From Octopus sinensis (lineage: Eukaryota), in NCBI RefSeq assembly GCF_006345805.1, contig NW_021831925.1, positions 1 through 36,084 on the forward strand: 36,084 bases of DNA. Direction: 5' to 3'. This document shows positions 5,769 through 35,836 of this stretch, one piece after another. The notes under the pieces are model-generated. The model ran no database searches. It saw only the letters and a program-made list of their open reading frames with translations, and was not told where the DNA came from. The stretch's first letter is position 1. Every line of letters begins with the position of its first letter. The translations under genes were made by a program, and so were the position numbers.

Positions 5769-6070
5769 ATAGGTATATTATATATGTATATATATATATA
5801 TATTATGCATATGTATATATATGTATATGTATATTAAATATATATTTTGATATTTAAATAAATATATATATATGTACATGCACAGATTCAAACATATATA
5901 CATGTATATATATACATGATATACATACATACACACATATAGATATAGACAAAAAATTATACATCTATCCGTGTATCCCATACATCCATCCATCTAATCA
6001 TCCGTCCATCCTTACATACATACGTAATGTATATATACATGCATACATAAATTCATGCATATGTATATAC
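5430..6070. repeat. Compound (TG)n/(TA)n/(TATG)n microsatellites
   Basis: Direct reading. Confidence 0.9.
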
Positions 6071-6264
6071 ACACATGTAGCTAATCGTGAGACTACATTA
6101 TATAGATCTATATTCAAGACAGCAGGGTGTTGCGTAATTTTCGAATTGTGTTTGTTGTGTTGCTGTGAACACGCGCGAGTGTGTGTCTTTGTTTCTTTGT
6201 TGTAACTTTTTCTCTACTTAGTTTCTATTTCTTAACACACACACTCACGCACACACACACACAC

Positions 6265-6306
<42 letters not shown>

Positions 6307-6361
6307 TATGATATGCATATTTAAATATATACATATATATATACATACCTACATAAACACA

Positions 6362-6563
6362 AGACGCCATGATAGATCGTTTGCTCTTACACGTATTTTT
6401 TTCTCTCCTTGTTTCTCTCCTTGTTTTTTTTCTGTGTATCTTTCTGTCGAAGAGCGTAGGCTCGAAAAGGAAAAGACTTTTTCTATTCCTGAGCGCTATA
6501 CTAATACAATTGTTTGTTTGTACTCCACCTGCCTTCGTCTTTTGTTTATTTTCGTAAACTTCC

Positions 6564-6570
<7 letters not shown>
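6362..6570 (+). mobile_element. Non-coding Penelope-like 3' module (family E) with a mutated hammerhead motif
   Basis: Inverted homolog of 10685-10912. Contains tcttt-CTGTCGA-A-GAGC-gtag-GCTC-GAAAAGG (6439-6476) and ends in (TA)n. Confidence 0.72.
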
Positions 6571-6642
<72 letters not shown>

Positions 6643-6663
6643 ATTGTATATATATAATGAATA

Positions 6664-6946
6664 CAGTGTACATTAAACACATAAGAGGTATCCTTCAAGA
6701 TACCTTTTTTCACGCTAGAAGGAACAGCTAAAGTAAAAACAACTATTAGTGATAAAACCTCGAAGGGAATGAAAAACAAAAACATTTACCATCTATTTAA
6801 TCTACTAGGAAATAGATGGTAAATGTTTTATTATTCATTCCCTTCGAGTATTTTTTATCCCTAATAGTGGTGTGAACTTTAGCTGTTCCTATTAGCGTGA
6901 AAGGAATCGTATGAAGGATACATCTTATTCGTTTAAATGTACACTG
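6664..6946. mobile_element. Foldback MITE, Tc1/mariner-type ends (TA|CAGTG...CACTG|TA)
   Basis: Imperfect inverted arms 6660-6798 and 6810-6950 (acatttaccatctattt / aaatagatggtaaatgt) with an 11-nt loop. TA on both sides. Confidence 0.8.
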
Positions 6947-7046
6947 TATTTATATGAATAATATATAGTCTATTGACTAACTTTTCTACACGCTAGGCCA
7001 CAGGTAGTAAACATTTCTAAAATCTTTATTACCCTGATATTATTAA

Positions 7047-7106
<60 letters not shown>

Positions 7107-7271
7107 TAGGGAATAAATCCAAATTTACAGGAAAAAATCAGATTTAGGATTAAATCCAATTTTATAGTAAAATATTATATAAATTAATTAGAGACAAAAC
7201 CACTATTTTGCAAAACAAACAAGGAAAGACTTAATCAATACATAAAATTTTAATAAAAAGTAAAAAAACCG

Positions 7272-7315
7272 CCACTACAATTGTTTCATGTCCTCAAATG
7301 ACAATCTTCAGGTGG
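7272..7315 (-). ncRNA. Minimal type-I hammerhead ribozyme motif
   Basis: Exact reverse complement of 7382-7425. Confidence 0.78.
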
Positions 7316-7381
7316 AATTCCGATTTTCAAATCAGTTTTCAATTTACTTCATAAATTGAAACTGATTTGAAAATCGGAATT

Positions 7382-7425
7382 CCACCTGAAGATTGTCATT
7401 TGAGGACATGAAACAATTGTAGTGG
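7382..7425 (+). ncRNA. Minimal type-I hammerhead ribozyme motif
   Basis: Stem I CCAC/GUGG; core CUGAAGA 7386-7392; stem II UGUC/GACA with a U-U at its base; GAAA 7410-7413; palindromic stem III ACAAUUGU; cleavage triplet GUA (A7421). Confidence 0.78.
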
Positions 7426-7659
7426 CGGTTTTTTTACTTTTTATTAAATTTTATGTATTGATTAAGTCTTTCCTTGTTTGTTTTGCAAAATAGTGGTTTT
7501 GTCTCTAATTAATATTATAATATATATATATTATATATATATTATATATATAATATACATATATACATACATACATACATACATAAATACATACATACGT
7601 ACACGTATATACATACATACATACATACATACATACATACATACATACATACATGTATA

Positions 7660-8085
7660 TGTTGTTCCTGGCGGAAATGTTAGCCTACCTCTGATGAGAC
7701 AACAATAACACTCGAAAATTGATCAAGGCTTTTCATTATTGTTTCAATCGGAGAATAGTTAAATTTGCCCTGTTTATATATCAGCAACGCTGGTTACATA
7801 TTATATCGTAACTTGATAGTGTGTGGACTGAGACCTCTGATGACAAGACTCCTGATATTAAATGAACTGTTAAATATTACGGTATGCAAATTAGTAACCC
7901 CACTTCTCTGCGGCTAGTTGACTTGTTGAGCATACAAACAGATTGGCAGCTTGCTTTTCTGGGAGTATCAAAATGATGTAGACACTTCTGATGAGAATCC
8001 AATAAGTTCCGAAAATCGTTTAAGGTTGTGTTTCACTTTTTCAATCCACAGAGAAATGGCTGTTTATATTTCCACTGCATAGGTT
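7660..8085 (+). other. Non-repetitive island with three periodic CUGAUGA cores (degenerate hammerhead array)
   Basis: cct-CTGATGA at 7691 (...ctcGAAAattgatcaagg), cct-CTGATGA at 7837, ctt-CTGATGA at 7988 (...ttccGAAAatcgtttaag). Spacings are 146 and 151. Confidence 0.45.
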
Positions 8086-8102
8086 CTACATACATACATA
8101 CA

Positions 8103-8136
<34 letters not shown>

Positions 8137-8239
8137 CATGCATGCATACATACATACATGCATACATACATACATATGTGTGTATATATTATACGTATGT
8201 GTACATATATATTATATATGTATATATATGTATATATAT

Positions 8240-8278
<39 letters not shown>

Positions 8279-8299
8279 TATAATATATATATATATATA

Positions 8300-9662
8300 T
8301 TCAGAAGGAAACTAATCACCTTCCTTGAGAAATGACTTGCTGCCTGACCCCCCAACATGGTTTCCGACCAGGAAGAATCCTGCTTAACTCAGCTCCTACA
8401 ACCTATGACTGGGTGCTGAAACGACTGCTCAACCACTCAAATGTGGAAGTGATATATCTCGACTTTGCAAAGGCCTTTAATAATGTCGATCATGGAATGA
8501 TATGTCACAAACTGCGTGATCTTGGCATAGTTGGAAAATTGGGAGAATGGCTTCATGACTTTCTGAAGGATAGAAGTCAGGTGGTAGTAGCCAATGGGGC
8601 CACTTCCATTAACATACAAATAGTGAGCGGTGTTCCGCAGGGCACTGTTTTGGGACCACTACTGTTCATAATGGCCCTCTCAGACATGCCCTCAGCCACG
8701 CAGAGAGCCACGATCACAAGTTATGCAGATGATACAAAAGTTTCACAGGCAATACATAACCCTGAAGACACTAAGCACCTGCAATGTGAGCTGGACGAAA
8801 TATACAAGTGGACTGAAAAGAATAGCATGCAGTTCCATGCTGAAAAGTTCCAAGCTTTATGCTATCAGCATGCAAAACTAAATGTAATACCCAATGAATA
8901 CACTGGACCTGGAAGGATTGCAATCCCAGAGGCACAATCAGTGCGTGACCTTGGTATTTACATGAGTGATGACGCAACCTTTCATGTACATGTTGCTAAA
9001 TTGGCAATGAAATGTAGGCGGCTGGCTGGGTTGATTCTTAGAAACTTTAGAACAAGAGACTAAGAAACCATGATGGTCCTCTGGAGGACACTTGTCCTAA
9101 GCCACTTTGACTAATGCTCTCAGCTATGGTCACCATCCAGTGTCAAGTTGATCACAGAACTTGAGGCGATCCAACGAAGCTACACGAAGAAGATAGCCTC
9201 TGTGCAGCATATAAGCTACTGGGAAAGACTCAAGAGATTAAAACTCTATTCCTTGGAGCGTAGGCGAGAAAGATATGCCATAATATACATCTGGAAGATC
9301 CTGGAAGGACTTGTCCCAAACTTTGGCATCGAGAGTTACACAAATACCAGAACTGGGCGCCACTGCGTGGTGTCAAGGACTCCAAATTTGCCATCAAGAT
9401 GTAGGACAAGATACTGTGATAGCCTGGGCTTCAGAGGCCCACAGCTCTTCAATATCCTCCCGAAGAACCTGAGGGACCTGCATGGGGTGGATGCGGATGT
9501 CTTTAAAGTAGGACTGGATCTCTTCCTGTCAGGTGTCCCGGATGAACCAACTTCACGGAAGGAGGTGCAGATGAGGGCAGCTGCATCGAACTCTCTCATG
9601 TACCAAATGGCAGTTGCTAAAAAGCATTCGTGAAGTAAAATCATGTAGCAACACCAAATGGC
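8300..9662 (+). pseudogene. 5'-truncated non-LTR retrotransposon ORF2, reverse transcriptase and C-terminus (CR1/L2 group)
   Basis: Motifs QHGFRPGR, IYLDFAKAF, SGVPQGTVLGPLLF, YADDTK, RDLGI, SYWERLKRLKLYSLERRR. ORFs 8332-9063 and 9148-9633 are in the same frame, broken by TAA at 9061 and 9112. A probable frameshift lies near 8375. No endonuclease domain. Confidence 0.95.
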
Positions 9663-30457: not shown

Positions 30458-30530
<73 letters not shown>

Positions 30531-30531
<1 letters not shown>

Positions 30532-31006
30532 GTAAAGGCTATTTGCCAACATAATGTCGCTGTCAAAAAAAGGACGATGTTACTATTGTTTTAGCCCCGA
30601 GAAACGTAGTTTCTAGCTGGCTAATAAGGACACTATCTCTGTCCTTATATTTTCGAACAGGGAGTCCAGCGCAATAATCTAGCGCTAGACAACATCCGTG
30701 GACTAGTTTCTGGGTTATTGCTCTTTATCAACACAGAGCTGCTGCTTTGGCCAGACGGTGTTGCTGAATTCACCGTTCGAACGTATGGTTTTCAAAGGGA
30801 CGTCACTTTGAAAGAGCAATAACCCAGAAACTAGTCTACGACTGTAGTCTTGCGCTAGATTGTAGCTCTGAACTTCCTATTCGAAAATATAAGGACACAG
30901 ATAGTGTGTTGTATAGCCAGCCAGAATCGACGTTCCTTGGGGCTAGAACAACAGCAACATCGTCCCTTTCGGGACAGCCACATTATGTTGGCAAATAGCT
31001 TTTACT
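30531..31006. mobile_element. Foldback MITE with 196-bp TIRs, Kolobok-like ends
   Basis: Arms 30531-30726 and 30811-31006 (gctatttgccaacataatgt / acattatgttggcaaatagc; ctagtttctgggttattgctcttt / aaagagcaataacccagaaactag). Right end is CT|TTAA, left end ATAA|TG. Confidence 0.85.
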
Positions 31007-31079
31007 TTAAAGAACTGTTACTAAATATCTTTCTTTGAGAGATTTAAAAATAATAATATTTCTCTCTCTCTCCCGCCCC

Positions 31080-35235: not shown

Positions 35236-35836
35236 ACGCAGCAGTGGCTGTGTGGTTAAATGCGCACGAGTGGCTGTGTGGTAAGTAGCTTGCTAACCAG
35301 CCACATGGTTCCGGGTTCAGTCCCACTGCGTGGCACCTTGGGCAAGTGTCTTCTGCTATAGCCTCGGGCGAGACCAAAGCCTTGTGAATGGATTTGGTAG
35401 CTTGCTTACCAGCCACATGGTTCCGGGTTCAGTCCCACTGCGTGGCACCTTGGGCAAGTGTCTTCTGCTATAGCCTCGGGCCGACCAAAGCCTTGTGAGT
35501 GGATTTGGTAGCTTGCTTACCAGCCACATGGTTCCGGGTTCAGTCCCACTGCGTGGCACCTTGGGAAAGTGTCTTCTGCTATAGCCTCGGGCCGACCAAA
35601 GCCTTGTGAGTGGATGTATGTGTGTGTATATGTTTGTATGCCTGTGTTTGTCCCCCAACATCGCTTGACAACCGATGCTGGTGTGTTTACGTCCCCGTAA
35701 TTTAGCGTTTCGGCAAAAGAGACCGATAAAATAAGTACTAGGCTTACAAAGATTAAGTCCTTGGGTCGATTTGCTCGACTAAAGGCGGTGCTCCAGCATG
35801 GTCGCAGTCAAATGACTGAAATAAGTAAAAGAGTAA
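35236..35836 (+). mobile_element. SINE A with triplicated head
   Basis: gtagcttgct starts at 35285, 35397 and 35508 (112 and 111 bp apart), followed by one body and tail. Confidence 0.93.

Follow-up and report, generated by a model that had tools for sequence, protein, structure and literature searches.

A hammerhead-bearing palindrome of Octopus sinensis as a probable head-to-head pair of spliced leader copies of a Hydra-type Penelope-like element

Among retroelements, Penelope-like elements (PLEs) are generally regarded as exceptional because they keep introns. Earlier work on these elements has already described their inverted pLTRs, their tails, their hammerheads and their targeting of (TA)n. 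A useful point of reference outside the PLEs is LINE-1 twin priming, in which microhomology links two target-primed cDNAs of the same RNA into an inversion. Craig et al. (2021; PMC8557442), who described the Hydra clade of EN+ PLEs, including Hydra-1_Obim, stated that what intron retention means in PLEs is unknown. PLE hammerheads are minimal dimer-type motifs with poor cleavage in vitro, and dual hammerhead motifs on opposite strands, 100-700 bp apart, have been mentioned (PMC4209133). In Penelope of D. virilis, transcription starts 46 bp before the intron, which has been removed from most transcripts (PMC2377424). A TCACT initiator-like motif was noted in Adineta pLTRs, and an antisense template was proposed for PLEs, the question of an antisense or an unspliced sense template being left open (Arkhipova, 2013; PMC3846280). 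Furthermore, in vitro experiments on a Poseidon PLE found that both target strands are nicked and extended, that synthesis starts at two internal sites bounding the tail, that the substrate is uncleaved RNA, and that the hammerhead requires protein and is dispensable (Frangieh, 2024; PMC11167929). In the full-text literature covered, which lay mostly outside subscription journals, neither spliced retrocopies nor twin priming was found to have been reported for PLEs.

The window analysed in this study is the whole of one unplaced contig (NW_021831925.1; 36,084 nt) of the 2.72 Gb genome of Octopus sinensis (GCF_006345805.1). A preliminary description of the window, made from its letters alone, reported a near-perfect palindrome with a 5-nt loop and two 1-nt indels, and arm pairing recovered exactly this: the arms at 7183-7346 and 7352-7513 have no substitutions and two 1-nt indels, and the loop is CTTCA (7347-7351). 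The boundaries given for it, 7183 and 7513, hold for the core pairing; however, the left arm actually reaches 82 nt further as the tail of a PLE, running to 7101 and then into (TA)n, and the right arm ends 82 nt short of it. The loop is likewise present but is not a separate spacer, consisting simply of extra 5' bases of the right arm, and A7346 is common to both arms (Table 1). Each strand carries the motif CCAC-CTGAAGA-T-TGTC-7 nt-GACA-T-GAAA-CAATTG-TA-GTGG, which has the CUGANGA, GAAA and UH core and the stems I-III of a type-I hammerhead. A full descriptor scan, which gave 0.017 matches per Markov-shuffled window (60 shuffles), confirmed the minimal type-I motif with self-complementary stem III that had been described on both strands, whereas the Rfam Hammerhead_1 model suggested as a check gave no hammerhead match (E<=1 on 6000-9000 and E<=10 on the arm), the Rfam matches on the arm and region being just generic hairpins (miRNA) below threshold. 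A fold-back of reads or assembly as the source of the palindrome is strongly contradicted by head-to-head pairs at dozens of independent loci with differing inner junctions (38 junction types among 47 pairs). A search of the genome with one arm gave 568 candidates, 40 of which were scored and yielded 67 matches at 88-100%, mostly head-to-head pairs elsewhere.

Table 1. Features of the palindromic insertion, in positions of the window
Feature	Position	Strand	Basis or remark
(TA)n target microsatellite, left flank	7050..7100	.	Sequence; (TA)n-like flank test over 99 pairs
82-nt PLE tail, left arm only; its end is the putative outer priming site	7101..7182	-	3'-end clusters
Left arm, putative spliced leader copy with tail; begins 21 nt before the exon junction	7101..7346	-	
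Minimal type-I hammerhead motif, left arm	7272..7315	-	Full descriptor scan
Left-arm exon-exon junction, intron absent	7324..7325	-	Comparison with long copies
Exon 1, 27 nt, from the A of initiator-like TTCACTTC, the putative transcription start	7346..7372	+	
Right-arm exon-exon junction	7372..7373	+	Site of the 1006-1206 nt GTATGT...TTTAG intron in long copies
Minimal type-I hammerhead motif, 9 nt past the splice acceptor; predicted cut after A7421	7382..7425	+	
Right arm, putative spliced leader copy without tail; ends at an internal AT-rich site, the putative inner priming site	7346..7520	+	
(TA)n-like target microsatellite, right flank	7512..7564	.	

The parent of these arms was reached from L021, a solo copy that has additional sequence at its 5' side and that led to long copies, including a tandem array with a 5.57-kb unit. 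The PLE origin, the inverted terminal repeat and the young age proposed for the palindrome all stood: the parent RT and GIY-YIG element was found by genome search, each arm is the pLTR of this 5.6-kb Hydra-type PLE, and the arms within a pair differ by 0.96%, as against 3.96% between insertions. What the preliminary description missed is that the unit is an intron-less copy of the leader of the element, built anew at each insertion rather than existing as a unit by itself. The tailed arm of the window differs from its nearest intron-bearing copy, arm L173, by one mismatch in 220 bases. The parent ORF contains SDKT, YRDD, CTCRDKSKC, CYLC and CRH (P0001/P0002), as well as RIKWK in the place of an RWK motif, with R.RWK or R.KWK in 17 of 45 homologs. 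A VY...YIG motif at residues 668-692 of the L213 frame agrees by eye with the Hydra alignment, and no profile or fold match was obtained for the C-terminal GIY-YIG domain. Pfam and PDB sequence searches of the ORF returned no RT match, and none of its 47 homologs is informatively named; a model built with 46 sequences (pLDDT 83) has TERTs as its top six structural matches (E 2e-9 to 1e-8), so that the YRDD core and these matches together characterize a telomerase-like RT. The 156 ORF matches have longest open frames of 762, 827 and 859 aa, and no complete ORF was present in the 20 loci fetched from them. The tandem or inverted pLTR structure with a one-sided tail is that of PLEs, and the DKT motif, the CxCX5C linker, CxxC and CxH near the C-terminus and the (TA)n target are those of Hydra; judged by its motifs, the parent carries the marks of the clade and appears to be a Hydra-clade C-terminal EN+ PLE. 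Between the RT thumb and the linker, residues 453-558 of the L213 frame form a disordered asparagine-/lysine-rich insert, which resembles the N-rich inserts of Adineta Penelopes (PMC3846280). A 1189-aa open frame at L227:3851-7420, inserted beside a PLE copy, looks by eye like a Polinton-type B-family DNA polymerase, with Endonuclease_7 as its sole Pfam match.

All 19 long copies examined have the arm interrupted after ...GATTTGAAA by a stretch of 1006-1206 nt, which starts with GTATGT and ends with TTTAG. This GT-AG intron interrupts the arm after 27 nt in the long copies and is missing from the arms of the window exactly, as in a processed retrocopy, and the palindrome is almost certainly a copy of a spliced PLE leader. 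In exact counts over the genome for its own subfamily, the spliced junction occurs 76 times and the donor 30 times, with no control match for either, and the acceptor 126 times (control 5). In sister subfamilies, the letters of exon 1 differ and the initiator, donor and acceptor are kept; the junction predicted for one sister subfamily had 347 matches (control 22), 26 of the 30 sampled being real, and that of a second sister subfamily had 122 (control 0; 30 of 30 sampled real) against 748 acceptors. Such intron-less head-to-head copies number hundreds in this genome. One palindrome (L176, G000:C5:119858115-119860201) uses the exact donor in both arms, joined 13 nt upstream of the usual acceptor and leaving 13 extra intron bases at the junction; the master copies seen have no AG there. 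In four long copies of a sister subfamily (L221, L222, L224 and L225), the block of initiator, exon 1 and donor is present as two or three repeats at a spacing of about 1 kb. Many sister copies have at their 5' end a T-rich tract, which was considered as an antisense poly(A) and rejected, since in long copies it runs on into the intron and is therefore templated.

At the level of RNA, the contigs of four presumed-RNA runs cover exon 2 and part of the ORF, with no splice joint or start among them. None of 49 tailed spliced arms continues into the ORF, and all seven ORF leaders found are preceded by an unspliced pLTR; therefore, no full-length spliced-mRNA copy was observed, and the upstream pLTRs of partial tandems do not derive from a spliced 5' end. 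Short spliced RNA may, as judged from these arrangements, come from solo or terminal pLTRs. Nine hammerhead variants are common to the spliced and the intron-bearing classes. When each insertion is represented by a single tailed arm and L176 is excluded, the resulting tree (102 arms) requires 20 changes between the spliced and unspliced labels, three of them forced by strong branches, and rejects a single spliced clade (p-AU 0.0003). Its resolution is weak (7 of 98 branches are strong), and the splice label is still more clustered than in shuffles. Since spliced junctions lie on several branches of the tree, intron loss has recurred.

The spliced arms also share a 5' limit. With two mismatches allowed, the loci at all 76 exact junctions yielded 90 spliced arms, of which 88 end within 33 nt of the junction and 15 at exactly 27; four end at 31-33 nt, which is read as chance extension into the partner arm, and two that reach 95-101 nt are evidence against such a wall. 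Intron-bearing arms at the donor extend at least 75 nt upstream in 42 of 42 cases, past the initiator-like site, so that 88 of 90 spliced and none of 42 unspliced arms stop at or below it (p=2e-32); many of these 42 loci were chosen with an upstream query, and all 30 unbiased exact donor matches are among them. The donor-anchored comparison was used instead of the 5' ends of long copies, whose chaining is confounded by internal repeats (32 of 107 arms unchained). The same limit is found in the sister samples, where none of the 56 real arms extends beyond 27. Position -27 is the A of TTCACTTC, which contains the TCACT initiator-like motif, and this A is the likely transcription start of the leader RNA, as the arm ends suggest. 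An extra G precedes nine of 16 arms that end at -27, compared with seven of 66 other ends; as a cap-derived base, it is taken as a hint only, because the partner arm accounts for most cases.

The architecture of the insertions was surveyed over all exact junction and donor matches, together with the acceptor matches among the 100 of 126 listed, giving 269 arms and 99 head-to-head pairs (L149 counted twice). Exactly one arm carries the tail in 95 of the 99 pairs (p=1e-23) and in 19 of 20 pairs of the sister subfamilies, and the 3' ends of arms cluster at exon-2 positions 150-154 and 231-234. A (TA)n-like sequence flanks 96 of the 99 pairs on at least one side, against a background of 7.8%. Where one arm is clearly shorter (58 pairs), it is the tailed arm in 29 and the tail-less arm in 29; in five pairs, the shorter arm consists of tail sequence only, absent from its partner, and the arms do not overlap. 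The inner junctions of 27 spliced or truncated pairs have overlaps of at least 2 nt in 17 and filler in eight. Of 36 informative pairs, 35 are concordant in splice state; in the remaining one (L135), a 3-kb intron-bearing arm is joined to a spliced arm of the same variant, which requires either an RNA with two pLTRs or a second RNA. Only half of the pairs compared (20 of 40) have the partner as the nearest arm, and the similarity of paired arms could come in part from gene conversion.

The hammerhead core is 98-100% conserved over 191 arms, and the variable parts are N7, the bulge, loop II and stem III; stems I and II are invariant, and these copies, too closely related for a covariation test, display no covariation. 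Stem III has one G-U-preserving variant, and full compensation in it was observed solely in a distant relative. As for the G10.1-C11.1 pair, stem II opens with U-U or A-U followed by U-A. Self-pairing of stem III is retained in 163 of 171 parsed arms (duplexes of -6.4 and -5.8 kcal/mol), and the monomer ribozyme fold is predicted at -3.0 against -6.7 kcal/mol for the best fold. From its sequence, the hammerhead appears to match the minimal dimer-type motifs of PLEs. The two ribozymes of the palindrome cannot dimerise in cis, since any one transcript contains only one sense arm, and a read-through RNA of the insertion is predicted to form a hairpin of -261.6 kcal/mol that would bury the motif and that the preliminary description regarded as a possible substrate of Dicer or ADAR. 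None of 65 truncated arms starts at the cut site, a weak test given that about two were expected by chance; cleaved RNA as the template, a candidate that was considered, was set aside for want of a pile-up of arm ends there. No host function for the ribozyme or the palindrome is indicated by the sequence data.

Several other repeats occur in the window. At 7660-8085, an older repeat contains two hammerhead-like cores 298 nt apart (near 7690 and 7988); it matches other copies at 71-77% (1149 candidates), several of which keep both cores about 300 nt apart, and looks like a decayed tandem retrozyme. A second palindrome, flanked by TA at 6657-6970, has arms that are 81% alike, 1684 candidates and no hammerhead core; its ends, TACAGTG...CACTGTA, resemble those of Tc1/mariner-type MITEs. 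A third, at 30528-31009 beside (TA)n, has arms that are 79% alike, 1561 candidates and again no hammerhead core. Broken frames of LINE-type reverse transcriptase were recognized by eye from motifs at 8329-9631, and tandem or dispersed SINE-like repeats with 184-nt and 111-nt units lie at 318-806 and 35285-35615, with further dispersed copies.

The parent element, the exact intron loss, the 5' wall, the combination of a tailed with a tail-less arm and the (TA)n flanks are read directly from the genome, and on this basis the template was very likely a sense RNA and the head-to-head pair was probably made by twin priming on one spliced molecule at a nicked (TA)n target. Pol II would initiate at the initiator of the pLTR, and the intron would be spliced out after the 27-nt first exon. 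The PLE protein would then nick both strands of the (TA)n target, one of which would prime at the end of the tail and the other at the AT-rich site 82 nt upstream, and both cDNAs would proceed to the 5' end of the RNA, the later one displacing the earlier, before their 3' ends were joined via short overlaps or filler. The hammerhead would be carried along uncleaved. Repeated copying of one RNA assumes that the PLE RT, which is not known to have RNase H, indeed has none. In a read-through RNA, the intron of the downstream pLTR would escape splicing, which would be why the long copies keep it. Neither arm is systematically a copy of the other, yet variants and splice state are shared within pairs; twin priming from two fixed sites therefore fits best.

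The main rival is a fold-back with trimming, in which a single cDNA from spliced sense RNA copies itself via microhomology and the tail is trimmed off one end at integration. It would account for the variants and splice state common to a pair and for the short overlaps at the inner junctions (17 of 27), and the tail was ascribed to endonuclease resolution by Craig et al. (2021; PMC8557442). However, two trimming routes would have to be in equal use to yield the 29:29 ratio, pairs with both arms at 26-27 nt (L024; L281/L282; L287/L288) leave no space for a hairpin loop, and the mixed insertion L135 could not be produced in this way, so that we consider the fold-back conceivable but unlikely. 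L135 would follow readily from two separate RNAs, each primed once and held together by a protein dimer or by the self-complementary stem III of the hammerhead, a reading with which the self-pairing of nearly all parsed stems and a predicted dimer of the PLE protein (PMC11167929) also agree; nevertheless, frequent mixing of spliced with unspliced arms and of loop variants would then be expected, whereas mixing is present in one of 36 pairs, and we hold this reading to be improbable.

The remaining explanations dispense with a spliced sense template. Self-priming on an antisense template (Arkhipova, 2013) is the published reading of head-to-head PLE palindromes (PMC3846280), and under it the intron-less copies would be a self-propagating family arising from a few intron losses, as some small clades that are entirely spliced might suggest. 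However, antisense RNA is not spliceable at sense GT-AG sites, and the exon variants found in the spliced copies are those of the intron-bearing sublineages to which they belong. These copies also do not form one clade, end at the initiator of the sense strand and are joined at junctions that are distinct in most cases; we regard this reading as highly improbable, and the spliced palindromes, taken as sequence, argue against the antisense-template idea. Long inverted arms in TA and the two MITE-like palindromes in the same window would suggest a DNA transposon of the fold-back type (MITE) or else an artefact of assembly; either is scarcely credible in view of the unequal ends, variable centres, free 5' truncation and solo arms, of the 99% identity to the end of a retroelement that has lost its intron, and of the dozens of independent loci. 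A MITE, in particular, is refuted by the pairs, which have neither fixed symmetric termini nor a fixed length. Twin priming on a spliced sense RNA thus retains our preference for this insertion. Our judgement is evenly balanced on its extension to PLEs in general, according to which their integration would proceed through coordinated twin priming on a single sense RNA, with one fixed start site per target strand, the intron of the cap-proximal pLTR being spliced to give short palindromic retrocopies and that of the downstream pLTR being kept, so that an antisense template would be unneeded.

The locus itself is ordinary repeat DNA, and it is the family that makes a stated open question testable. 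Its hundreds of exactly spliced head-to-head copies record the use in vivo of a template that was sense and spliced; they map the likely start site and tie the two start sites known in vitro to the two target strands. In addition, PLE integration could readily be tested with the 270-nt leader as a minimal substrate, and MITE-like palindromes can arise from a PLE, which would lead repeat annotation to misfile them.

Compared with the Hydra clade as described by Craig et al. (2021; PMC8557442), the parent has the same order of RT and GIY-YIG, the DKT motif, the CxCX5C linker, the (TA)n target and the hammerhead, and its copies are similarly inverted and 5'-truncated with a one-sided tail. It differs in length (5.6 kb against less than 3 kb), in its tail (82 nt against 30-40 nt) and in having a 1-kb pLTR intron and an N-rich insert; no pLTR intron is noted for Hydra in the clade section or the supplement of that paper. 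By eye, against the printed alignment, both the protein and the hammerhead differ from those of Hydra-1_Obim, and the two are different families. Non-LTR retrozymes (Li et al., bioRxiv 10.64898/2026.07.22.740005) likewise consist of short hammerhead units that are non-coding and are related to the pLTRs of PLEs; however, they are head-to-tail tandems, an arrangement that the spliced arms, being head-to-head or solo, do not have, and the word 'spliced' is absent from the text of that preprint as available. Penelope of Adineta vaga shares head-to-head palindromes, a tail on one arm, the TCACT motif and the N-rich ORF insert, but an antisense template is favoured there (PMC3846280), whereas the spliced palindromes described here point to a sense template. 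In Penelope of D. virilis, as here, transcription starts in the pLTR, an intron follows soon after with its acceptor beside the hammerhead, and most transcripts are spliced; its genomic copies are described as mostly intron-retaining, in contrast to the hundreds of intron-less copies in the octopus (PMC2377424, PMC4209133), although the wording of Schostak, 'majority contain introns', allows for intron-less copies seen earlier (PMC2377424). Poseidon PAc likewise has two internal start sites that bound the tail, observed there in vitro and deduced here from insertions; no strand difference in start site was reported for it in vitro and inverted joins are not treated in the sections covered (PMC11167929), whereas one of each site is used per insertion here, so that the octopus copies would add the coupling of one site to each strand and a spliced template. 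Finally, LINE-1 twin priming leaves non-overlapping arms from a variable inner primer, whereas in the octopus pairs the inner site is fixed and the arms mostly overlap fully.
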